A stretch of DNA of 57,979 nucleotides from a virus (IMGVR_UViG_3300037316_000015:1-57979), one strand, 5' to 3'; shown: positions 3,345 to 56,391, numbered from the stretch's first letter. Numbers and translations: made by a program. The notes: generated from the letters alone by a model not told the origin.

Positions 3345-5064
3345 CCGGCGTGAGGATGCCACCACAGCAGCAGTCGGTGGCACTGGGGTGTTCGCTGCCA
3401 GAGCTCTGTCACACAGTGCACTGTCATCTGCATACGGCTACGACAAGCATGGCAAGCCGATGCCTCGGCCGAGGGTATTCGCAGAGCGCAAGATCCTGAC
3501 CAGGAAGCCGATGCGAGGCAAGGGACGCCTGGGCGCCTCACTGGCCCTGACGACGATGTCTGTGCCACCGGCTGTGGTTGGGTTGAACAACCTGATGCAT
3601 GGGCACAGGTCTGAGGCTTCCAAGAGTGACAGCTCCAAGAGGCCGTCTCTGTGGCGTGATGCCCAGCATGGGGTGAAGTCGTCTTTGCACCAACGCAACA
3701 AGACCATCTCCCAGCACGCCCCGATCAGTCGTCAGGCAGAGAGCTACGGGGTCGGCACCTTGACTGGGTCGGCTGCCGGCGGCTTGACAGGTCTGGCACT
3801 GAAGAAGGTCAGACTGCACGGTGGTGCCAAGGCAGGTCTGATCGGACTGGCCGGGCTCACCACCGGTGTAGCCACTCTGCCGGCTCAGAGCAAGCTCATG
3901 CGGGCCACCAGCCACGGTAAGTACTCGGTCACCCCGACCGGTGTGGCCCGGACCAAGACCAAGCCTGCGCGGCCGTCAACTCGAGCCACAAGGGTGGAGC
4001 GTCGCAACGGCACTGAGGTCCCTAGTCGTCTTGGTAAGTCGGCTTCCTACCCAGGGTCCAACCTGTCTCATGGTCAGAAGCGAGCACTGGTACTGGCCGG
4101 TGGGACGACACCTCTGGTTGGTGACTTCACCGCGGCCGCTACTGCTGGCCGGATGGCACCACCGAACCTGCGCAAGAAGACGGCAGCACTGCAGGCCACT
4201 GGTTCTCTTGGTGGATCGGCTGTAGGTGGCGCAGCTGGTGCCTACGGTGGTGCTGCCCTAGTTCGCCATGTGCCGGCTCTGCACGCCCCGGCCGCTCACA
4301 TCAAGAACACCGTCGACACCGTCAAGCATGGTGTGGCCAGCCGCATTCACCCCAAGCTAGGTGAGGTTGTAGGAAGGCGTCAGGAAGCTGCGCGTAGCGG
4401 TGTCGACACTTCCAGGATCACCAGGCTGGCCGCTCATAGGCATCCAGCGCTAGCCAGGGTAGGACGGGCAGCAGTGCGAGCTCGCAAGCCACTGCTCGGT
4501 GTCGGTGCTGTGGGGGCAACATTGGGCCTGGCAGCAGGGCAGAGCGCCGGCTCCACCATCGGGTCTTCACTTACCTACGGCCATGCACTGAAGCTCGAGG
4601 ACAAGCAGCGTGGCAAGCGGGTGGCCAAGAGCAAGGACACCAGGCATGGCACTCGTATCTCCAAGCTGGCAACAGCCCCAGGGATGAGTGAGCGTGAGCG
4701 TCATAAAGCGGCCAGAGCCAAGGAACAGTCAGCGGTGCTCAGCCAGGTTGGGGGCGGTCTTGGTCTGGCTGCTACTGGCTCTCTGCTTGGCAGCAAGGTG
4801 GTACACAATGCCAAGTTGGCTAGGCATCTGAAGGCAGCCCCAGTGCCGATTATGGCTCTTGGTGGCAGTGTCGGTGCCGTCAATGCGTTCAAGTACGCAG
4901 CCATCCAGCATGCCGAGGCCAAGAAGCTAAGGGCGCCGCAACCAGTTGTAGCGTCCAAGGCTTTCCCTTTGCCTCGTGTCAAAAGCATGAAGGGCGCCTA
5001 CCTGCGTCAGACTAGGACCGCTGCAGGGATCAAGACAGCTACCGTTCGCGGAGGACTGACATGA
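3337..5064 (+). CDS. Basic Gly/Ala-rich multi-helix putative internal head (poly)protein
   Basis: About 575 aa from ATG 3337; K/R/H-rich with several GA-rich hydrophobic segments; ASKS, LGKS, VAKS, ISKL, ASKA sites. Confidence 0.7.
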   Translation: MANRREDATTAAVGGTGVFAARALSHSALSSAYGYDKHGKPMPRPRVFAERKILTRKPMRGKGRLGASLALTTMSVPPAVVGLNNLMHGHRSEASKSDSSKRPSLWRDAQHGVKSSLHQRNKTISQHAPISRQAESYGVGTLTGSAAGGLTGLALKKVRLHGGAKAGLIGLAGLTTGVATLPAQSKLMRATSHGKYSVTPTGVARTKTKPARPSTRATRVERRNGTEVPSRLGKSASYPGSNLSHGQKRALVLAGGTTPLVGDFTAAATAGRMAPPNLRKKTAALQATGSLGGSAVGGAAGAYGGAALVRHVPALHAPAAHIKNTVDTVKHGVASRIHPKLGEVVGRRQEAARSGVDTSRITRLAAHRHPALARVGRAAVRARKPLLGVGAVGATLGLAAGQSAGSTIGSSLTYGHALKLEDKQRGKRVAKSKDTRHGTRISKLATAPGMSERERHKAARAKEQSAVLSQVGGGLGLAATGSLLGSKVVHNAKLARHLKAAPVPIMALGGSVGAVNAFKYAAIQHAEAKKLRAPQPVVASKAFPLPRVKSMKGAYLRQTRTAAGIKTATVRGGLT

Positions 5065-8971: not shown

Positions 8972-9705
8972 AGCGCAAGGTCTTCGCTGAGGACCGACTG
9001 GCACCATTGGCCATGGCATTGCGTGACCTGCTCGGTGAGCTGCGTTCATCGGCACCACAAGCGATCACCGAGCCTCAGATGAACGGGCTCAACAAGGACA
9101 TGAAAGAGGCAATCTTCAATGTTGAAGCAACCGGTGACATGGCTCCACTGCATGCTGTACTGGCCAGAGTGGAGACCGGCGCCAAGGCTGCCGGTGATGC
9201 GGGTAAGCCTGTTCTCAACGGTGTTCAGTGGATGCGCGACGACCTAGCAGGGCACCGCCCGGTGAAGAACACTGGTGAGGGTGCACCTGTCGCCCCGCAG
9301 GCACCTGCGGGTCCTCCTGCCAAGTACAGGGCACCGCAGGCCCCATTTATCTCACCGCGGGCCATACGAGAAAAGAACCGGCCTCCGCGGCGCGACATCT
9401 CTGACACTGAGCTCTACCGGCTGGCCAGCGAGCAGAGAGCACGCAAGGTCAACAGACCACGACGGATGCTCAGTCCTGCCAAGCTGGCCGGCGGTCATGG
9501 TATCCAGCTGCACTACGACGACTTCGGATCTGACGATGGTCAGTACCCTGACGTGCAGCGTGATGACATGACTGGCCAGAGTGCTGCTGAGGCTGAGCTG
9601 CCAACGGTGACCAGGAGAACACTGGTTCGTACCGGGACCAGAGCCAACGTTGGTCCATTTGGTCGCAAGGCACCTCTGCGTCGCCGCAGGAAGACCGACG
9701 CATGA
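8803..9705 (+). CDS. -1 frameshift extension of the 1131-aa protein (or independent 287-aa ORF from GTG 8842)
   Basis: The -1 frame opens after TGA 8785-8787; slippery C_CCA_AAA at 8803-8809; ATGA-coupled to the next gene. Confidence 0.65.
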   Translation, partial: PKSAGPSAGGSQPVVPAGSRGSGVQVSVPGPASVDSGGSGGNVQPVGSARLPGTGVERKVFAEDRLAPLAMALRDLLGELRSSAPQAITEPQMNGLNKDMKEAIFNVEATGDMAPLHAVLARVETGAKAAGDAGKPVLNGVQWMRDDLAGHRPVKNTGEGAPVAPQAPAGPPAKYRAPQAPFISPRAIREKNRPPRRDISDTELYRLASEQRARKVNRPRRMLSPAKLAGGHGIQLHYDDFGSDDGQYPDVQRDDMTGQSAAEAELPTVTRRTLVRTGTRANVGPFGRKAPLRRRRKTDA

Positions 9706-12593
9706 CCACCAGATGGTGGGCGCCGACTCGAGCAACGGTGGATCCTGACCAGGTGGTGCTGGCTCTGCTGCAACCAAGTGGTCACGCCAGCGGTGACCTT
9801 GGTGCTACCCTGCTGGCAGTCCACCGGGCCGGGGCGGCAGCAGCCGAGACTGTGTCCAAGTCAGCGGTACCCAGTGAGGTGTCCCTGGTGACGACACTTG
9901 CAGATAACAGGTCCAGACTTGCAGATCTTGTGGTCGACTCGGCTTCTGCCTCAATGGACGCCACCTACGCCGGGCTGTTCGTGCGTGACTTCTTCGATCA
10001 GGCTGAAGAGTCGGTCCTGGCCTCGTACCGGACCATGGTTGCCAAGGGGGTTAGCCCACCACTGGCAGTCAACCGTGCAGCGGCCGTGTACGGTGTCGCC
10101 TCCAGCGGGCTTGGCAAGTACTTGGCAATGGCCTCTGATCCCAAGGCCAACCCGATCGCGCTCACTGATGCTGCCGATCGTGCTCTGCTGGAGTATGTCT
10201 CCAAGATGGTCGGTATCGAGGCAGAGGACACCAAGGAGCCAGTGTCCAAGGCCGAGCCATTGCTGACAGCTCAGGACCAGTGGGACGCGCAAGAGCACCC
10301 ACGAGATGCAGTAGGCCGGTTCGCTGACCTGACCGGTGAGCGCGAGGGGTACCAGGAGCAGGTCACTGAGGTAGACCCAACAGAGTTGGCGATGTTTCGC
10401 TCCATGATGGGTCTTGGCGGCCAGGCTGCACCTGATGTTGGCTCTACCCCAGCAGCACGTAGAGCAGCGCGTGTAGCCCGGGTACGCCGTGCAAATGCAC
10501 TGGTAAAGCCACAGGCTTCTCTGGTGGCTACGAAGCAGGAGTCAGCACAACTAGTTAGTCCCAAGCTGACTTCTGCCCGCTTGAGTAGCGCTGCACTGCG
10601 TAGTGCCACCTTGAAGGCAAGCGCCATCGTTGACCTGGTACAGCCACCAGTGCCAGAGGCAGCAGGCCATGATGACTCGGCCATGGCTATGTACAGCGAT
10701 GAGTCCAGGGAAGGGTTCAAGGAGCTGACTCGTAACATCGAGGTCTATCTGCCGTTTGCAGATGGTCAAGACCTGCGTGGCCAGATGCCTGGAACATCCA
10801 AGCAGAAGGTTCTGCGTCTAGGTCATCTGCTTGACGCTGCGTACAACCACTACAACATCAATGACCCTACGGATCCTGATGCTAATCCTGAGGCCAAGGA
10901 CGCATTCGGCATGGTTGCCAGCACCGAGAAGCTCACTGAGTACGGGGATGACAACGGCGGAAAGTATGGACCTGCAGCCTCAGAGATCACAGAAGATGAG
11001 TATGTTAAAGCTGAACATGAAGGGATGAGTAGGGACAAGTACGTGAAGGAGCTGATCAAGAAAGAAGGAATGGTCGGTGGGGAGCGCAATCCCAAAGAGG
11101 AACCACACGTCCACTTCGCGATAGATCACTCTGACCGCCGTAGCCACGTGCTGGTGCACGTTCAGGACGATCCAATCAGTACTGCTCTCAAGCCGAACAA
11201 CAAGGTCAGGCCAAAGCCGACAGTGGTGCAGTTCACGCTTCCCAAGGTGGTCGCTCGAGTAGATGACGAGCCTGGCCGACACTTCGAGCAACTGACGTTA
11301 GATAAGAACCAGGCCTACCTCAGCGCTGATCTGATTCGTATGTATGACATGGATGAAGAAGTCTTCGTCAATGAATACTTGCTCACCCCGATCAGTGACG
11401 AGGAAGCTGCAGCAATCCAGAAGAAGAGTGGGTTGAGCAAAGCCCTGGACACCATGGAACGAACCAGCTTCGACCAGATGCATCCACGCTCAGAGGATGG
11501 CGAGTTCCGCAGTATCGCAACCAGAGCTCGTCTGGTGCCTACTGCTCCATCTGACATTGGCCGGCGCTGGTCAACACTGGAGCGTTCTGATGAGTCGTTG
11601 AAGGCGCCACTGACAGAGGATCGTGCCAAGCGCCGGGCCAGTCGTGTCAGCAGGGTAAACAGAGTTCAGCAGATGGCTACTCAGTCTCAAGCGCCAATAG
11701 CTTTTGATACTAAAGTCAACCTGACCTCTGCACCGCTAGGCAGCGCCAGGTTGAGCAGTCCAAGGTTGACATCGGCTCAGCTGCAGGCTTCCAAGCTCAG
11801 CGAGATTCTGAGGGACCCGATTGACGACACCAAGATGGTGCTTGATGACAACCATGTCTATCGGGTGATGAACCACGACGAGTTCACCAAGCTGGTCAAG
11901 AAGCACACAGTCAGTGGTGGCATCGCTGGTATTGGCAGCAGCTCGTTGAAGACAACGTTCCTTCACCCTGAAGGCAAGAGCCAGATTCTGTCTCTTAGCG
12001 AGTACGGTCCTGACGAAGTCATGCGGCACATGAACAACACCACCGAGGAACTGGCTGGTGGCAAAGCCGGCCAGTATATGAAGCAGCTGTTTAAGCACAC
12101 GGTACGCAGTGATACCTCAGAGCATGAGTACGAAGACCTCGAGGCGCTTCGCCAGAAGATCGACGCTGAGCTGAGCAAGCGGCCGAATATGGCTTATGCG
12201 ACTGCCGATCCTGAGCCGCCAGAGATGGACTACGGCAGCTCTGGTGTTGGCCAGGATTTGATGGATGACGTGAACCCGATGGATGCACCACAGGCTGCTG
12301 GTGAGTCAGTGACATGGGTTGTGCACGGCAGTACCAGACCAGTTGCTCCGTTGTACCTCATCGAGATGGACCCTTGGAACGGGTGGCCAGATCCTGACGC
12401 TGACCTGACGTTCCTGGGCGATTACAAGGGCCGGGACATCACCTACAAACGACCTGATGATCCGCGTAGCCCTGTTCGAGCAGATGAGCTTAGCTCGTCT
12501 GTTGTGAGCAATGCCATGATCAAGGTCTACAAGGCTGAGTTCAGCCGATATGTGTTCAACCCTGTCAACGAAGATGAGCTGCCGAGGAGCTGA
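9702..12593 (+). CDS. Large putative internal head polyprotein with two duplicated modules
   Basis: 963 aa; VSKA...HPRDAVGRF and LSKA...HPRSEDGEF, each followed by an Arg-rich helix and LxSxx pentapeptide repeats. Confidence 0.7.
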   Translation: MTTRWWAPTRATVDPDQVVLALLQPSGHASGDLGATLLAVHRAGAAAAETVSKSAVPSEVSLVTTLADNRSRLADLVVDSASASMDATYAGLFVRDFFDQAEESVLASYRTMVAKGVSPPLAVNRAAAVYGVASSGLGKYLAMASDPKANPIALTDAADRALLEYVSKMVGIEAEDTKEPVSKAEPLLTAQDQWDAQEHPRDAVGRFADLTGEREGYQEQVTEVDPTELAMFRSMMGLGGQAAPDVGSTPAARRAARVARVRRANALVKPQASLVATKQESAQLVSPKLTSARLSSAALRSATLKASAIVDLVQPPVPEAAGHDDSAMAMYSDESREGFKELTRNIEVYLPFADGQDLRGQMPGTSKQKVLRLGHLLDAAYNHYNINDPTDPDANPEAKDAFGMVASTEKLTEYGDDNGGKYGPAASEITEDEYVKAEHEGMSRDKYVKELIKKEGMVGGERNPKEEPHVHFAIDHSDRRSHVLVHVQDDPISTALKPNNKVRPKPTVVQFTLPKVVARVDDEPGRHFEQLTLDKNQAYLSADLIRMYDMDEEVFVNEYLLTPISDEEAAAIQKKSGLSKALDTMERTSFDQMHPRSEDGEFRSIATRARLVPTAPSDIGRRWSTLERSDESLKAPLTEDRAKRRASRVSRVNRVQQMATQSQAPIAFDTKVNLTSAPLGSARLSSPRLTSAQLQASKLSEILRDPIDDTKMVLDDNHVYRVMNHDEFTKLVKKHTVSGGIAGIGSSSLKTTFLHPEGKSQILSLSEYGPDEVMRHMNNTTEELAGGKAGQYMKQLFKHTVRSDTSEHEYEDLEALRQKIDAELSKRPNMAYATADPEPPEMDYGSSGVGQDLMDDVNPMDAPQAAGESVTWVVHGSTRPVAPLYLIEMDPWNGWPDPDADLTFLGDYKGRDITYKRPDDPRSPVRADELSSSVVSNAMIKVYKAEFSRYVFNPVNEDELPRS

Positions 12594-13690
12594 TGAGCGT
12601 GCCTAACGCTAGCTTGGTACCGACCAGTGGCAGGATGACCCACATGGCAGCCCGATCGGACATCGTTCGTGCCGGGGCAACCCCGGAGTTCGTCACCTTG
12701 TGCAAGACGCTCTACGGTGACCTGATTGACCCTGACGAGATCTGGCACGAGGTGTTCAAGTCCAGCCCTGACCAGGCTGACGTGCATGCCAACACCGGGA
12801 TGTCGACCAAGCAGAAGATTGTCCGCGGGGCGTCTCTGATCGGTACTGCTGCTGGTGCCATCGTGGCCGGCAAGGAACTGGTCAAGGCCCCCGGTGTAGC
12901 CCGCAGGATTCTGCCAGGGCTAGCCCTTGGTGCTGATGGTCTGGCTGGTGGCATCCAGTACAACGACGCTCGCAAGCAGGCAGCACTGGTGCCAACAGGT
13001 AGCCAAGTCGGCAAGAGCGGGTCCACGCCTGCTGGTGACACCATCCCGCCACTGAAGGATGTGGTCACCGGGGCTCTGAAGCAGACCAAGAAGATCGTCG
13101 GGCAGCTGCAGCCCACTGGTGCCGGTGCCACTGTGCCGGCGGCACCGATGGCTTTGGCCGGGCCCAAGAAGCTAGCACCGACACCGCTTGGCAACCAGAG
13201 CTCGGAGTTCTCTGGCGGCAAGAGCGCCGATGACATCGAGTGGTCTGGGACGTTCTCCAAGTTCGACGACGACAAGCACCTGGCCTTCGGCTGGGCCTCG
13301 GTGTCCAAGGTCAACGGTCAGCCGGTGGTCGACGCACAGGGTGACTACATCGACCCGAACGACCTGGAGGATGCGGCATACGAGTACATGCTCAGTTCTC
13401 GGATCGGCGGGGCCATGCACCAAAGGGATGCCTGGGACCGGCCGGTGAAGGTAGCCGACATCGTGGAGTCGATGGTCTTTACCGACGACAAGGTCTCCAA
13501 GATGGGTCTGCCCGATGACTTCAACCGGGGCTGGTGGATCGGAATGAAGATCCACGACGAGAACGAATGGACCTCGGTGCGCAAGGGCCAGGACGGTACC
13601 GGCTTCGGTCGTTGCGGCTTCTCCATCCACGGCAATGGCGTCCGCAAGGACCAGGACATTGATGAGCTGATGGGATACGCGTATGCCTGA
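12593..13690 (+). CDS. Prohead protease, XkdF/Peptidase S78_2-like, with N-terminal extension
   Basis: FSKFDDDKHLAFGWASV, VVDAQGD, LEDAAYEY, AMH, VES, GWWIGMKI, W..VRKG and GFSIHG motifs. Confidence 0.85.
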   Translation: MSVPNASLVPTSGRMTHMAARSDIVRAGATPEFVTLCKTLYGDLIDPDEIWHEVFKSSPDQADVHANTGMSTKQKIVRGASLIGTAAGAIVAGKELVKAPGVARRILPGLALGADGLAGGIQYNDARKQAALVPTGSQVGKSGSTPAGDTIPPLKDVVTGALKQTKKIVGQLQPTGAGATVPAAPMALAGPKKLAPTPLGNQSSEFSGGKSADDIEWSGTFSKFDDDKHLAFGWASVSKVNGQPVVDAQGDYIDPNDLEDAAYEYMLSSRIGGAMHQRDAWDRPVKVADIVESMVFTDDKVSKMGLPDDFNRGWWIGMKIHDENEWTSVRKGQDGTGFGRCGFSIHGNGVRKDQDIDELMGYAYA

Positions 13691-14114
13691 GATGCGTAAC
13701 AGGGTGTTCGCCAAGTCCCTGTACAGCCGTGACCGACACACGTCCGGCACACGTCTGCTGCGAACTGGGGCCGGGCTGGCGCTCGGTGCCTGGGGCATCA
13801 GCCACTCGCCTATGGTTGGGAACGCACTGGCGCGTGGGGTGCGGGCTGCATCAGAGCACCAGAGCCAGGCAGCCATCGACGCAATGCAGGTTGCTCGTTC
13901 TGCCTACGGTGCCATGGCCCGGGGGACCGCTCGAGGAGAACGTCAGGTACGTCAGATCCAGGCAGTGAACCGGTCAGTCGACAAGGTTCCTGTCGCTATT
14001 CGTCCGGCTGTGGCCACCAGTGCTGGCATGCTTCTTCTTGGCGGTGCTTTTCCGGTCCGGCGGACGAGCTACCACCCCGTCAACATCCGCATTCGTACAG
14101 GGGTGAACCGATGA
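13683..14114 (+). CDS. Basic membrane-helix putative virion protein
   Basis: 143 aa; FAKS near the N-terminus; two hydrophobic helices. Confidence 0.65.
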   Translation: MPEMRNRVFAKSLYSRDRHTSGTRLLRTGAGLALGAWGISHSPMVGNALARGVRAASEHQSQAAIDAMQVARSAYGAMARGTARGERQVRQIQAVNRSVDKVPVAIRPAVATSAGMLLLGGAFPVRRTSYHPVNIRIRTGVNR

Positions 14115-14671
14115 GTGGACTCGTCAACGGCGGTCACGGCCGGCGCATCACCGAGGAACCGATCGTCTTCTCCAAGTCCCAGGTGCCAGCTGACACCAAG
14201 CCGAAGTGGACCCACAAGGACACGGCAGCAGTAGCAGGTCTCGGCGCAGTTATGGTCGGATCAGCAGCTGGTGGTGCCATGGTCGGACGAAAGGTGGTCA
14301 ACGCCGCCAGTCGAGCTCGCTTGGTGAAACTTCACAACAAGTCTGTTGTCCACAAAGCCCAGCGCTACTACGACCCCGAGCACCGTCGCCAGCGTCGGTT
14401 CGGGATGACTGAGACAGCACTGGCCATTGGCGGTGGTGCTCTGGCTGCTCATGGCATAGCCGGCAAGGTAGGCATGCGTGCTACGACCAAGATTGCCAGG
14501 CAATCTGTGGAAGAGTCGACCAAAGCCAAGCATGGCCTCGATGTCAGTTCCAAGCTGCTGGCCACCAGTCGTCGCAGTGCTGCCGAGACAGCCGGCGGTG
14601 CAGGCTTGGTAGCCGGTGCCAGTGGCTTGCACTACCACGGCAACCACTCACGCGGGAAGTCCTGGAGGTAA
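14111..14671 (+). CDS. Basic Gly/Ala-rich putative virion protein
   Basis: 186 aa; FSKS and VHKA sites; three GA-rich helices. Confidence 0.65.
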   Translation: MSGLVNGGHGRRITEEPIVFSKSQVPADTKPKWTHKDTAAVAGLGAVMVGSAAGGAMVGRKVVNAASRARLVKLHNKSVVHKAQRYYDPEHRRQRRFGMTETALAIGGGALAAHGIAGKVGMRATTKIARQSVEESTKAKHGLDVSSKLLATSRRSAAETAGGAGLVAGASGLHYHGNHSRGKSWR

Positions 14672-14673
14672 CC

Positions 14674-15519
14674 ATGGCCAAGCCAAAACGCAAGTACCGC
14701 GGCGGTGGTGCCAACTCTGCTCAGTGGGCTAGCAATGAGGTAGCCAAGCCGCGCCGGCCGATTGCACAAGCGCACAAGACACCAGTTGCAGCACCAGTAC
14801 ACACGGCGCCAATAGCACAACCGGCGTACCACGGACTGCCGGATGACGATGCGTCGGTAGCTGCCAGGTTCAGAGCCAATCCAGCTTTGGAAAGAGCACA
14901 TCACGCATCGCCGGTCAAGCACACCAGTTTCTCTGGCACTCGTGCTGGCAAGATCACTAATGGTGTCGCTCTTGGCGGAGCTTTGGCTGGAACTGGGTAT
15001 CTCATTCACCGGCATCGCAAAGCTGCTCGTGCAACCATGGCAATCGAGGCAAGGAAGAAGGCGGAAATGTCGAAGTCTCTGATCAACCCGTTCGAGGAAG
15101 TGGTGGTCTTCGGCAAGGCCTATCCGGTCGCATTGCCGGTGGCACATTCCACCAAGATCCGGGCACTTGTTCCCACAGGTGCTCACGTGGGCCATGGCAA
15201 CAAGCTTGTCGTTGTCCATGGCGGTGGCCCGAAGATCACCCGTCAGCAGTTGCAGACCTATCACGGCCACGGCCGAGGTCTTAGTGAAGGGCCGTTCGGG
15301 AAGTCCCTGTTCCCTTTTGACGGAGCCCAGTCCTCCCCATCAGCAGGCAGTGGGGGCGGTCTGGGCGACTCAACGAACAGTGCTACTTCGCCGGGAAAGC
15401 CCGGGGAGCCGAAGAAACCATTGAAGCCAACGGCTGTCAAAGGCCCGACTTCACCAAGACGAAGCATCCCCAATTCCAACATTCCGGATGCGTCCAGCAA
15501 GGGTTCCCGTATCGCCTAA
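14674..15519 (+). CDS. Basic putative virion protein
   Basis: GGAGG SD; 281 aa; MSKS, FGKA and FGKS sites; one hydrophobic helix. Confidence 0.65.
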   Translation: MAKPKRKYRGGGANSAQWASNEVAKPRRPIAQAHKTPVAAPVHTAPIAQPAYHGLPDDDASVAARFRANPALERAHHASPVKHTSFSGTRAGKITNGVALGGALAGTGYLIHRHRKAARATMAIEARKKAEMSKSLINPFEEVVVFGKAYPVALPVAHSTKIRALVPTGAHVGHGNKLVVVHGGGPKITRQQLQTYHGHGRGLSEGPFGKSLFPFDGAQSSPSAGSGGGLGDSTNSATSPGKPGEPKKPLKPTAVKGPTSPRRSIPNSNIPDASSKGSRIA

Positions 15520-15569
15520 CGGCGTGTCGGTGACTAGATTGACAGACGAGCACTCAAAATGAGGTCAAC

Positions 15570-16784
15570 ATGGGACAGAAGATCAAGCGCCTCTCAGGCC
15601 TCGAGATTGACGAGGTTTCCCTTGTCAACCGCCCAGCGAACCAGCACGGTATCGTTGCGATCGCAAAAAGTCAGGAGAACGTGATGGGCATCCAGGACGC
15701 AGAAGGCAACGAGGTCGAGCTTGACGAGCTGGAGATCGGTGACTACGTCTACGACGACAACGGCACCGAGTACCAGTGGGTCGACACTGGCGGCGACGAT
15801 GGCCAGAACGACGACGGCCAGGGCTACGACGATGGCCAGGGTGTCGACGACGGCTACGATGACGGGTATGGCGAAGTCGGCAAGGCTGGCTCCGCACTGG
15901 CAACGACTCGTTTCGGTAGCAGGACGGCTGCTCGGGTCAGTGGGGTCGCCAGAGCAGCCGGTCAGCGCAACGCAGCTCGTGGCCGTGAGGCTGGAGAGCG
16001 TCTTGGGCGCCGTGGCCGGAGTGCTGGCACCAGGGCTGGTATGACTGCACGTTCTGCTGGCACCAGTGCTCGCAGCGTTGGTGATTCTGCCAAGTTGCAT
16101 GGCATGTATGCGGCTGACGCAGGTCGTGGCGCAGCAGGCAACGCTTACGGCGCAGCGCGTTCCAGTGCCGCTGGCCAGCATGTGATGCAGCACCAGGGCG
16201 CCTACCGTGCCGGTGCTGGCGGCGCAGCTGCTGTCGGTGGCTTCGGTGCAGGCCGCGGTCGACGTGGTTCGGTCAGTCACTCGATGGGTGACGAGGTGCT
16301 GGAGTCACTGTCCAAGTCCTTCAACGACGATGACCGCAACGAGGTCATCGCCAAGGCCATGGACTACGTGCAGTCTGTGTCCGAGCGCAACGAGCAGCTG
16401 GAACAGGTTGTGTCCGACATCGTGCAAGACCGTGATGTCGAGGGGTACTTCGAGCTCGCCAAGAGCTACGACCTTCCAGTGGATCCAGAGCAGATCGCCG
16501 GCATCATGTATCGGGCATCCCAGACGATGCCTGACGAAGATGTGGCGACCATGGACCGGCTTTTCTCCTCGATGGGAGAGGTCAACAAGGCCTACTACGA
16601 CGAGATCGGCTACAGCGGTGACGGCTTCCAAGGCGACGCCCTGTCCCAGATCTACGCTGCAGCCGGCGGGGTCGTGGCCAAGTCCGACTCCGGTCTTACC
16701 CAGGAGCAGGCTGTGACGGCACTGTTCGACGCCAATCCCGCTGCGTACGACGAGTACGAAGCCGAACAGCGCAACTACCGCTGA
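15570..16784 (+). CDS. Scaffolding protein carrying an N-terminal protease-type EVSLVNRPAN strand
   Basis: Position before decoration and capsid genes; acidic helical C-terminus ending EQAVTALFDANPAAYDEY; many x-x-K-S/A sites. Confidence 0.75.
   Translation: MGQKIKRLSGLEIDEVSLVNRPANQHGIVAIAKSQENVMGIQDAEGNEVELDELEIGDYVYDDNGTEYQWVDTGGDDGQNDDGQGYDDGQGVDDGYDDGYGEVGKAGSALATTRFGSRTAARVSGVARAAGQRNAARGREAGERLGRRGRSAGTRAGMTARSAGTSARSVGDSAKLHGMYAADAGRGAAGNAYGAARSSAAGQHVMQHQGAYRAGAGGAAAVGGFGAGRGRRGSVSHSMGDEVLESLSKSFNDDDRNEVIAKAMDYVQSVSERNEQLEQVVSDIVQDRDVEGYFELAKSYDLPVDPEQIAGIMYRASQTMPDEDVATMDRLFSSMGEVNKAYYDEIGYSGDGFQGDALSQIYAAAGGVVAKSDSGLTQEQAVTALFDANPAAYDEYEAEQRNYR
15795..15869 (+). repeat. Coding tandem repeat DDG(Q/Y)
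   Basis: Five gacga(c/t)gg-type units encoding DDGQNDDGQGYDDGQGVDDGYDDGY. Confidence 0.8.
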
Positions 16785-16795
16785 GGAGACATGCA

Positions 16796-17194
16796 ATGGC
16801 CTACGAAGAGACTCTGAAGTCGATCAGCCTGGACGTTGACTCGTCCCTCGGCTTCTACACCGGCGTGCCTGGCCTGCCGGGGTCTACGGACCCGAACTAC
16901 GGCAAGCAGTACTGCTTCGTCAAGATCGTCGATGACCACAAGGTCGGGCTGGCGGTTGCCGCCACTGACCTGGTCATCGGAGTACTGCAGAACAAGCCCC
17001 AGGTCCCGGGTCAGGCAGGCACCATCGGCTTCTTCGGTGTCTCCAACATCATGGTCGCTGGTGCTGTCACCGCTGGTGATCTGCTTGCCCCAGATGGCGA
17101 GGGACACGCCGTCACCGACGCTGTCCACGGCAAGTGGGTAGCCCTGCTCGACGCAACCACTGCCGGTGAACTCGTGCCGGCACTTCGGGTCTGA
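16796..17194 (+). CDS. Capsid decoration/cement protein (DUF2190-like)
   Basis: GAGGAG SD; IGVLQNKP and AGAVTAGD...DGEGHAV; directly before the major capsid gene. Confidence 0.75.
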   Translation: MAYEETLKSISLDVDSSLGFYTGVPGLPGSTDPNYGKQYCFVKIVDDHKVGLAVAATDLVIGVLQNKPQVPGQAGTIGFFGVSNIMVAGAVTAGDLLAPDGEGHAVTDAVHGKWVALLDATTAGELVPALRV

Positions 17195-17218: not shown

Positions 17219-18217
17219 ATGCCAAATCCCACTCAGGCGGATATGCATGTCAACGTGCCGCTCACCAACGTGAGTATCGCGTACATGCAGTCAGCCGATT
17301 CCTACATCGCGGACAAGGTCTTCCCGAAGGTCAAGGTCACCAAGCAGTCCGACCTGTTCTGGAAGTACTCCAAGAGCGACTGGCGTCGTACCGATGTCCA
17401 GCGGCGAGCGCCTTCCACCGAGACCCCTGGTGTCGGCTGGACGCAGACCACGGACCAGTACTTCTGCCACGTCTACGGCGTCCACAAGGACATCGACGAC
17501 CAGATCAGGGCCAACGCGGACTCCAACTTCAACCTGGACCGTGACGCCACCGAGTTCGTGACCAACCAGCACCTGCTCAAGCGGGACCTGGACTGGACCG
17601 GCGCATACTTCCACTCCGGGATCTGGGCAACAGACCTCGAGGGTGTGGCGGCCGCACCGACCGGCACCGAGTTCCTGCAGTGGGACCAGGCGTCATCGGA
17701 CCCGATCGGTGACGTGGCCCAGTGGCAGATCGACTTCCGCCAGCTCACTGGCTTCGCCCCGAACATCTGTGTGATGGGTGCCTACGTGATGAAGGCGCTC
17801 AAGCAGCACCCGGACCTGATCGACCGGATCAAGTACACCCAGAAGGGCATCGTGACCGAAGACCTGATCGCGACTCTCTTCGACGTGGACGAGCTGTTCG
17901 TCACCTACGCCACGCAGGCAATTGGCCCGCAGATCCCAGACATGAAGGCCCAGGATGCGATAGCTCAGTTCGAGTTCATCGGTGACCCCAAGGCGGTCCT
18001 GTTCGCCTACGCCCCGAGCTCCCCGTCGTTGCTCACCCCGTCGGCCGGGTACACGTTCACCTGGACCGGCTATCTCGGTGGCAACTCCGAGGGCGTGAAG
18101 GTCAAGAAGTTCCGGATGGAGCACATCGTTTCCGACCGGATCGAGGCCGAGCAGACCTACGACATGCACGTCGTGGCAAAGGACATGGGGCTGTTCGCCA
18201 CTGCGGCGGTGGCCTGA
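17219..18217 (+). CDS. Major capsid protein
   Basis: 332 aa; HVNVPLTNVSIAY..IADKVFPKV, WD..SDPIGD and PSAGYTF; strong codon bias; GAAAGGA SD. Confidence 0.9.
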   Translation: MPNPTQADMHVNVPLTNVSIAYMQSADSYIADKVFPKVKVTKQSDLFWKYSKSDWRRTDVQRRAPSTETPGVGWTQTTDQYFCHVYGVHKDIDDQIRANADSNFNLDRDATEFVTNQHLLKRDLDWTGAYFHSGIWATDLEGVAAAPTGTEFLQWDQASSDPIGDVAQWQIDFRQLTGFAPNICVMGAYVMKALKQHPDLIDRIKYTQKGIVTEDLIATLFDVDELFVTYATQAIGPQIPDMKAQDAIAQFEFIGDPKAVLFAYAPSSPSLLTPSAGYTFTWTGYLGGNSEGVKVKKFRMEHIVSDRIEAEQTYDMHVVAKDMGLFATAAVA

Positions 18218-56056: not shown

Positions 56057-56391
56057 GGTGGGTCTTCCTTCAGCCAGGGCTGGTCAAAGCCAAGGCCATA
56101 CTTGGTCTTGACATAGTCCATGCCTATCTGGATATCAGTACGCGGCGCCCTTGCTGTCGGGTTGTCTGCCGACTCATGGGTCTTCAGGTAGTCCCCGACC
56201 TGGAGATTGCCAGGGGTGATCTTGACGATCTTGTGCCTGAAGATGAACTGCTGCTCGCCCCACTTGTTGACTGTTACGTCCTCCAGGTAGTCCATACCGC
56301 CGTAGGTCGATCTGCCGTCGAGCACTATCTGCTTGATGGCCCAGAGGACTACTCGGTCCTTGACGTACTTCTTGATGAATGATCTGAGCAT
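56053..56391 (-). CDS. Hypothetical protein
   Basis: GGAGGAG SD before MLRSFIKK. Confidence 0.65.
   Translation of the reverse strand: MLRSFIKKYVKDRVVLWAIKQIVLDGRSTYGGMDYLEDVTVNKWGEQQFIFRHKIVKITPGNLQVGDYLKTHESADNPTARAPRTDIQIGMDYVKTKYGLGFDQPWLKEDPP

Follow-up and report, generated by a model that had tools for sequence, protein, structure and literature searches.

IMGVR_UViG_3300037316_000015, the record of an uncultivated virus, comprises 57,979 nucleotides (nt), and we refer to this whole stretch as the window. Its plus strand carries a head module in which a prohead protease gene is followed, after 1879 nt holding three open reading frames (ORFs), by a scaffold gene and then by genes for a cement-like and a major capsid protein (Table 1). 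We describe, using profile searches, comparison with related loci and structure prediction, that the protease ORF stops shortly after the strand bearing its catalytic serine, and that the segment which comes next in single-chain relatives forms the N-terminus of the scaffold protein. The initial annotation of the window had proposed that the protease is split over these two genes, and both its coordinates and its description agree with the ORFs, the Pfam assignment to PF14550 and the motif scans.

Table 1. Features of the head module and their positions in the window (aa, amino acids; AF2, AlphaFold2)
Feature	Position	Strand	Basis or remark
Source stretch, uncultivated virus record	57,979 nt	+ (head module)	
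Protease gene, 365 aa	12593..13690	+	Pfam PF14550; 40 homologues of the same build; AF2 model
Protease core domain, residues 220-348	13250..13636	+	Pfam PF14550 Peptidase_S78_2 (XkdF-like prohead serine protease)
Scaffold gene, long form, 404 aa	15570..16784	+	Precedes cement-like and major capsid genes; 29 homologues
Hairpin segment, residues 1-33 (MGQKIKRLSGLEIDEVSLVNRPANQHGIVAIAK), ending at conserved Lys33	15570..15668	+	Segment that the protease lacks
Weak Shine-Dalgarno core GAGG, 5-nt spacer, of the long-form start	15561..15564	+	
Nested start: AGGAG (15673-15677), 6-nt spacer, ATG 15684-15686 (Met39)	15673..15686	+	
Predicted short-form scaffold, 366 aa, without hairpin	15684..16784	+	Deduced from the nested start
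Three intervening ORFs (143, 186, 281 aa)	13683..14114, 14111..14671, 14674..15519	+	
963-aa ORF	9702..12593	+	MuF/head-morphogenesis position; no family match
Cement/decoration-like gene	16796..17194	+	PHROG 673 (E 8.5e-10); weak Pfam Phage_cement_2 match
Major capsid gene, lambda-E type	17219..18217	+	PHROG 1005 (E 1.2e-84); Pfam Phage_cap_E

The protease gene ends just past its serine strand

The protease ORF matches PF14550 over profile positions 4-121 of 126, with an E-value (E) of 9.4e-13 and 48.7 bits against a cut-off of 24; in a search of the genome the same match scores 51.2 bits. It shares its head-assembly module with a capsid gene of the XkdG/lambda-E type, as is expected of a PF14550 member. 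The protease thus belongs to this family by its domain, but not by the single-chain architecture of XkdF or of psiM2 ORF12. His276 lies in GGAMH (codon 13418-13420) and Ser344 in GFSIHG (codon 13622-13624), and both residues are invariant in an alignment of 40 protease sequences. The core domain ends just past the serine strand, and GFSIHG has 18 more residues behind it (NGVRKDQDIDELMGYAYA) before the stop codon, so that the two motifs and the early stop without an EVSLVxxPA segment are as the initial annotation had described them. The ORF has no scaffold-like C-terminal half and contains no match to the hairpin segment described below, either by motif pattern or by a hidden Markov model (HMM) of that segment. 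It has no match to Pfam PF04586 (Peptidase_S78, the HK97 gp4 type) at E up to 0.1, and among the PDB chains its sequence finds no match at E up to 1.

The missing segment opens the scaffold protein

The scaffold protein starts with MGQKIKRLSGLEIDEVSLVNRPANQHGIVAIAKS, in which EVSLV is encoded at 15612 and IAK|S at 15660-15671, where the initial annotation had located the piece absent from the protease, 1.9 kb downstream of it. The segment, of about 33 residues, is built from a basic start, a hydrophobic strand, the motif xVSxVDxPAN, a second hydrophobic strand and a Lys, and we refer to it as the hairpin. In a six-frame pattern search of all 57,979 nt the full motif has a single match, which lies in the scaffold gene; a looser pattern also matched at 56381, a spurious hit without the PA(N/Q/H) part. 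Among the 1156 stop-to-stop ORFs of the window, the segment HMM, which has 38 positions and includes this copy in its training set, gives 71.2 bits at the scaffold copy and 2.0 bits at the next best. Across 31 aligned scaffold sequences 18 of the 33 hairpin positions are invariant, Lys33 among them, and no part of the protein is better conserved than the hairpin. When scaffold residues 1-45 were used for a word-based homologue search, only the close clade was recovered, 29 proteins, none of them with a Pfam domain.

Single-chain relatives carry the same segment in one polypeptide

In HK97 gp4 the segment follows the catalytic serine in one chain, an arrangement that the initial annotation had named as typical of HK97-type proteases and that the gp4 sequence confirms: His65 and Ser114 are followed, 27 residues past the serine, by E141-ISVCTFPANEQAGIAAMK159|S. 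This stretch falls within the Pfam S78 envelope (residues 19-160) and is in register with EVSLVNRPANQHGIVAIAK33|S of the scaffold, K159|S aligning with Lys33. Conversely, the last approximately 34 positions of the S78 profile match the N-terminus of the window scaffold. Unlike the window pair, gp4 is a single chain, and the protease ORF of the window does not itself reach the S78 model. HK97 is not known to have a scaffold protein, the delta domain of its capsid protein doing that job, and its protease cuts after Lys.

ORF12 of psiM2 and psiM100 has many parts in common with the window system: it belongs to PF14550, has the hairpin motif VVTVSIVDRPAVPKARYLSIK and a helical, scaffold-like tail, contains a nested Shine-Dalgarno sequence with ATG, and shares its module with an XkdG/E-type capsid gene. 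In psiM2 ORF12 and its IMG/VR relatives the segment stands 24 residues past the serine strand (GFSITAV...VVTVSIVDRPAVPKARYLSIK) with the helical tail behind it, all in one polypeptide, whereas in the window the serine strand and the hairpin are encoded by different genes, 1.9 kb apart and with three ORFs in between. The XkdF-like proteins of Firmicutes phages (PHROG 3017) also unite a PF14550 core, with its His and Ser, a hairpin with K|S behind it and a C-terminal half that resembles a scaffold, but in permuted order: in Bacillus phage B83 gp09, Enterococcus phage EG-TP1 gp54 and Lactococcus phage 28201 gp33 the segment is N-terminal (...ITHVSYVDKAANKKQFFFTK|S; KITHVSYVDKAANKKQFFFTK|S), the protease core comes next, and the scaffold-like half follows the core. 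The initial annotation had ascribed this N-terminal arrangement to PBSX XkdF; among the sequences compared, it holds for these three XkdF-like proteins. In all four of the single-chain phages B83, EG-TP1, 28201 and psiM2 the next gene encodes the capsid protein, with no separate scaffold gene. The segments of the scaffold, the XkdF-like proteins, psiM2 and the other phages align without internal gaps, and only a few N-terminal residues vary in length.

The split is typical of a very large phage clade

Relatives of the protease core number 2742 at E up to 0.001 in a representative library, and 327 at E up to 1e-30, and not all of them are split. The motif was found in cis in none of the 172 protease homologues fetched; one loose pattern match among them (EVTGLGVAA in P0141) lacks both PA and the remainder of the motif and was rejected. 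Most related protease ORFs stop 0-4 residues past the end of the domain model. From the relatives in IMG/VR 80 loci were fetched, and in none of these does the protease ORF hold the segment. Instead, 70 of the 80 have it close to the beginning of an ORF on the same strand, 91-4028 nt past the protease stop, scoring 24.6-78.6 bits in 51 distinct versions with about 215-350 residues behind it, against 7.6 bits for the next best ORF. The other ten loci have only 214-3578 nt of DNA downstream of the protease.

Distant phages of the same capsid type share the split. In Rhizobium phage RHph_Y52 a ParB-like domain and a protease core ending in GFSIGGSGELIPA overlap by 4 nt with a gene starting ...LKEISGVTVPAQSGALVTIMK|S. 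Arthrobacter phage LiSara has a LigT-like domain joined to PF14550 in gp18 and, beyond four intervening genes, a scaffold (gp23) that starts ...VVETSGVDHPAHLHEGWVVCK|S. The gut phage MT835491 combines a stand-alone protease of 156 aa with a scaffold starting ...KITKVDFVDDGANPEAHIRLFK|S, and gp54 of Microbacterium phage ValentiniPuff also carries the segment. The layout is the norm in a very large clade of phages and no peculiarity of this one.

Predicted docking of the hairpin on the serine strand

The AF2 monomer of the whole protease, predicted from the 40-row alignment, has a mean predicted local distance difference test score (pLDDT) of 61 and forms strands at residues 218-225, 230-236, 288-296 and 313-320; at 334-355, which includes Ser344, it forms no strand and the pLDDT drops from 76 to 51. 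With this full-length monomer Foldseek finds nothing in the PDB at E up to 0.001, and the protease of human cytomegalovirus appears only at rank 48 with a probability of 0.15. An exhaustive structural comparison places T4 gp21 (5jbl_A) first, with Z 7.2, a root-mean-square deviation of 4.0 and 106 aligned residues, ahead of the next entry at Z 5.1; since Z 7.2 is middling on the scale of the comparison tool, we use it only as agreement with the Pfam assignment. In this alignment residues 209-347 of the model correspond to residues 2-143 of the 165 in the gp21 chain, and Ser344 falls in the region that holds the catalytic serine of gp21. The alignment stops three residues past the serine, and gp21 continues.

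The initial annotation had suggested modelling the protease domain together with the scaffold N-terminus. In such a complex prediction, of protease residues 205-365 with scaffold residues 1-45, the hairpin docks antiparallel to the serine strand with an interface score (ipSAE) of 0.67 (0.65, 0.69 and 0.67 in separate runs), compared with 0.01 for the best of three controls. The mark used for this score is reached by 116 of 157 solved complexes and by 2 of 215 mismatched pairs, counts that hold only roughly here because our own alignments were used for the complex prediction. The runs have at least 59% of their contacts in common, with 142-145 confident contacts, and predict an interface of scaffold residues 3-22 with protease residues 338-356, 246-265 and 271-277 (the His276 loop) and with parts of other strands and helices. 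The predicted register pairs protease residue 344 with scaffold residues 16/17, 346 with 13/14, 348 with 12 and 350 with 9. In gp4 and psiM2 ORF12 a further strand comes after the serine strand, as a hairpin, and the predicted geometry is what one would expect if the segment were this strand. As sequence search of the PDB, Foldseek and the exhaustive structural comparison all found no solved structure of the family, it is unlikely that the predictor reached this score by reproducing a similar complex already known.

A conserved nested start signal lies just past the hairpin

Six codons after Lys33 the scaffold gene contains a second putative translation start, at Met39 (Table 1), and this residue is invariant in 31 of 31 scaffold homologues. 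We scored a nested start wherever a Shine-Dalgarno core of at least 5 nt precedes a start codon by 4-10 nt within 15 codons past the conserved Lys. Such a start is present in 50 of 56 distinct related scaffold genes (36 with ATG, 14 with GTG), compared with 36 of 823 control windows of sixteen codons taken elsewhere in the same ORFs. The relatives mostly have AGGAGG, 5 nt and ATG, while the residues encoded there vary (PEEEEM, QEDAM, YEEGTM). Directly past the hairpin the psiM2-like single-chain genes (L092, 1501-2556; L094, 1339-2586; L095, 1324-2586) have GAGG or GGAGG, 7 nt and ATG, which suggests that these genes give a nested scaffold product too. On the strength of this conservation the scaffold gene most likely yields two products, the long form and a form that begins at Met39, and as the latter would be without the hairpin, only the long form could carry the protease.

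Discussion

Prohead proteases must enter the procapsid yet remain silent until its construction is complete. This is known to be achieved by a covalent fusion to the scaffold, as in herpesviruses, lambda, P2 and psiM2-type phages, or by a targeting tail, as in HK97. Where such a fusion contains a nested scaffold gene (herpesvirus UL26/UL26.5, lambda C/Nu3, P2 gpO, Mu I/Z), a minority of protease-bearing molecules and a majority of plain scaffold share a C-terminal assembly domain, and a cut falls between protease and scaffold. The split described here is a variant of such a fusion, broken into two chains. The Met39 start signal would fit the same two-form logic, the difference being that protease and scaffold are covalently joined in those systems, whereas here they are encoded by separate genes 1879 nt apart and their link would be the non-covalent insertion of a strand. 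What is new for the window is the conserved signal of an internal start, which would give a hairpin-less scaffold.

How could a protease divided in this way be built into the head? The split and the docking are supported by the data above, and from them we infer tethering, completion of the fold, a cut at Lys33 and the use of both starts. In the reading that we consider probable, the system is a two-chain version of the protease-scaffold fusion in which the hairpin tethers the core to the scaffold. The protease gene would make an HK97/XkdF-type (assemblin-fold) catalytic core up to and including the Ser344 strand, and the next element of the fold, the beta-hairpin of about 33 residues, would be supplied by the N-terminus of the long-form scaffold. 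By pairing antiparallel with the serine strand the hairpin would form a non-covalent tether through which the protease is built into the procapsid, and it may complete the barrel next to the active site. The restored protease-scaffold unit would co-assemble via the C-terminal domain of the scaffold; the stronger nested start would supply the bulk of hairpin-less scaffold, leaving the protease on a minority of scaffold molecules; and a later cut after Lys33, five residues before Met39, would free the pair of protease and hairpin from the scaffold. The N-terminal parts that vary between clades, whether ParB-like, LigT-like or helical and Gly/Ala-rich, would ride into the head with the core. The simplest reading of the origin is that a fusion of the psiM2 ORF12 kind was cut in two between serine strand and hairpin, after which the two genes would have kept overlapping in the Rhizobium phages and three genes would have come between them here.

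The initial annotation had gone further and seen in the split a built-in assembly checkpoint. The data do not imply this, as pairing of the two chains could already take place in the cytoplasm, ahead of assembly; the conserved nested start just past the hairpin points instead to tethering and control of stoichiometry, as in the fusions with a nested scaffold gene. A related idea, that the core cannot cut until the scaffold hairpin inserts beside Ser344 and finishes the active-site region, is in our view possible but rather doubtful. The conserved residues Glu12, Asp14, Glu15 and Ser17 lie on the hairpin strand that would insert there. Glu15, two positions before the conserved Ser, is conserved in the clade of the window and in HK97 and the Rhizobium and Arthrobacter phages. 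We had considered it as a third catalytic residue by analogy with gp245 of SPN3US, in which an Asp is reported to stand 25 residues after the Ser (PMC5694885). Other clades have His, Thr or Lys in place of Glu15, variation that argues against a universal catalytic role, and the idea was dropped. If the core does depend on the hairpin for activity, the assembly partner and substrate of the protease would be its obligatory cofactor, and each long-form scaffold, once cut at Lys33, would yield a free protease of two chains. It would then amount to a stoichiometrically limited activation switch in hundreds of phage lineages, carrying fused ParB-like and LigT-like enzymes headward.

Several points weigh against the two-chain tethering reading. 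Most of the barrel is present in the monomer model even though the hairpin is missing from it, so that the core may fold alone. In the predicted complex the scaffold partner reaches a pLDDT of only about 49-54, and its residues 23-45, Lys33 included, are not confidently placed. An AF2 model of a psiM2-like single-chain protein, for which only four alignment rows cover the hairpin, has a mean pLDDT of 53 and of 27-40 in the hairpin region, and is too poor to show where the segment packs in cis. Sequence links to the single-chain families are weak one by one. With scaffold residues 1-60 the sole Pfam match aligns positions 128-161 of the 165 in the S78 profile with residues 5-37, at E 0.14 and 12.8 bits, below the cut-off of 21, and at E up to 10 the S78 profile is reached by 3 of 31 full-length scaffolds. 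The single hhalign match of the scaffold to a psiM2-like profile (12-35 against 253-276) has E 0.033 and a probability of 1.5%. A segment HMM built without gp4 aligns gp4 residues 141-161 at 5.6 bits, and the gp4 segment ranks 72nd among 9443 sequences, behind 70 true scaffold matches and one other ORF. These three independent comparisons (Pfam S78, hhalign and segment HMM) nevertheless agree in register. The use of Met39 as a start is deduced from sequence signals, docking of the hairpin is predicted, and activity and cleavage in this phage are conjectural.

The first of these points would also suit a protease core that is complete and active alone, with the scaffold N-terminus acting only as a docking or cleavage tag that binds by beta-augmentation and is cut off at Lys33; such a tag would recruit the enzyme or merely be its first substrate, without a part in fold or catalysis. 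The segment that opens the XkdF-like proteins and is followed by K|S does resemble a removable pro-peptide, and the invariance of Lys33 in 31 sequences and the lack of conservation of Glu15 across clades would be expected of a tag. We nonetheless think this unlikely. In HK97 gp4 and psiM2 ORF12 the segment lies 24-27 residues past the serine strand, in gp4 within the curated S78 envelope; residues 9-17, rather than Lys33, face the serine strand in the predicted complex, whose confident contacts extend across most elements of the core; and T4 gp21 extends past the point at which the core of the window ends. 

Contact with Ser344 and the His276 loop could likewise mean that the hairpin blocks the active site as an inhibitory pro-segment and that the tethered protease is silent until cut. 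There is precedent in pre-active T4 gp21, whose catalytic centre is reported to be obstructed by its N-terminal region until self-cleavage takes this region away (PMC9958956). In our reading, that blocker is nine residues long and bears no likeness to the motif. The place of the segment in HK97 gp4 and psiM2, at the next strand of the fold and not at the N-terminus, and the strictly complementary pattern of 70 of 80 loci, in which the protease lacks the segment and a downstream ORF has it, better suit a needed part than a brake, which makes a pro-segment improbable. We regard as negligible the chance that the split is an artefact or a product of decay, be it a sequencing or assembly error, a frameshift, a decaying gene or a chance motif match. 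Although the region comes from the contig of an uncultivated virus, we found no evidence in support of this: the genes are separated by 1879 nt that hold three conserved ORFs, 70 of 80 loci and four isolated or deposited phages show the same layout, conservation within the scaffold is highest in the segment, and the HMM scores separate cleanly (at least 24.6 against at most 7.6 bits).

Viral proteases completed by a strand from a second protein are known from hepatitis C virus NS3/NS4A, flavivirus NS2B-NS3 and the adenovirus protease with the pVIc peptide of the capsid precursor pVI; in each, a peptide of a second viral protein adds a beta-strand and activates or localises the protease. By analogy, the split pair may work in a like manner, with a short peptide of a second protein that would add a strand; the adenovirus peptide derives from a capsid precursor within the particle. 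Neither fold nor family is shared, however, and activation by the peptide has been shown in those systems and would only be conjecture here. A literature search, with subscription journals outside its scope, found no description of a prohead protease split from its last strand. If the probable tethering reading holds, a fold divided between the enzyme and scaffold genes would be a third solution to the problem of the prohead protease, one that provides targeting, copy number via two starts and possibly activation. The layout is common, with at least 531 relatives in IMG/VR, and it extends to cultured Arthrobacter, Rhizobium and Roseobacter phages. Annotation is affected as well. In LiSara the actual protease is gp18, deposited as 'aldolase class I'; a Rhizobium phage protein is deposited as 'DNA methyltransferase/prohead protease' and a Lactococcus phage protein as 'DNA methyltransferase', labels that look misleading; and the scaffold genes of the clade are unnamed in deposits. 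Hairpin and core together would make a natural small split-protein pair.

Other features of the locus and its relatives

The N-terminal part of the protease is clade-specific, with conserved helices at about residues 20-65 (pLDDT 82-92) followed by a low-confidence linker rich in Gly and Ala. A stretch in it, SPDQADVHA, was considered as a cryptic strand in cis and rejected, as the segment HMM is silent in the ORF and AF2 gives helices there. The part fused before the core varies by clade (12593-13250 in the window, 3722-4459 in locus L003, 3590-4711 in locus L001), and elsewhere the fusions include a ParB-like domain in Rhizobium phages and, in LiSara gp18, a LigT-like domain of the 2',5' RNA ligase type. 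The loop before the catalytic serine (13583-13621) is longer here (RKGQDGTGFGRCGFSIHG) than the KGxRTGFSIHG of most homologues, and the related contig L004 has a different insertion, GEAGGGRGGFSIHG, at this position.

The three ORFs between protease and scaffold encode basic proteins with hydrophobic stretches rich in Gly and Ala. None has a match in Pfam or PHROG searches, and counterparts stand at the same place in L004 and L005, two of the 80 loci. The 281-aa protein and its counterparts have in common the motif K-SLINPFEEVVVFGKAYP...ALVPTGAH. The three proteins may be internal head or ejection proteins that are cut by the protease. Between 12400 and 17300 a promoter scan finds no promoter-like site, and a terminator scan finds three terminator-like sites against 2.4 expected, with no signal at the split. 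In a phage collection neither a near-identity DNA search with 12593-16784 nor a tblastn search with the scaffold gave a match; the major capsid protein is matched by 193 phage records.

Two viral contigs each carry two different protease-scaffold modules about 67 kb apart: 3300027749_000047 (135,953 nt; loci L019 and L024) and 3300028392_000043 (L020 and L025). Such pairs may reflect the joining of two phage genomes during assembly or a concatemer formed from related phages. Upstream of the protease, the translation of the 963-aa ORF shows by eye an apparent internal duplication near residues 195-330 and 590-700, in which RRAxRVxRVxR...SARLSS...LxAS and EHPRxxxGxF each occur twice.

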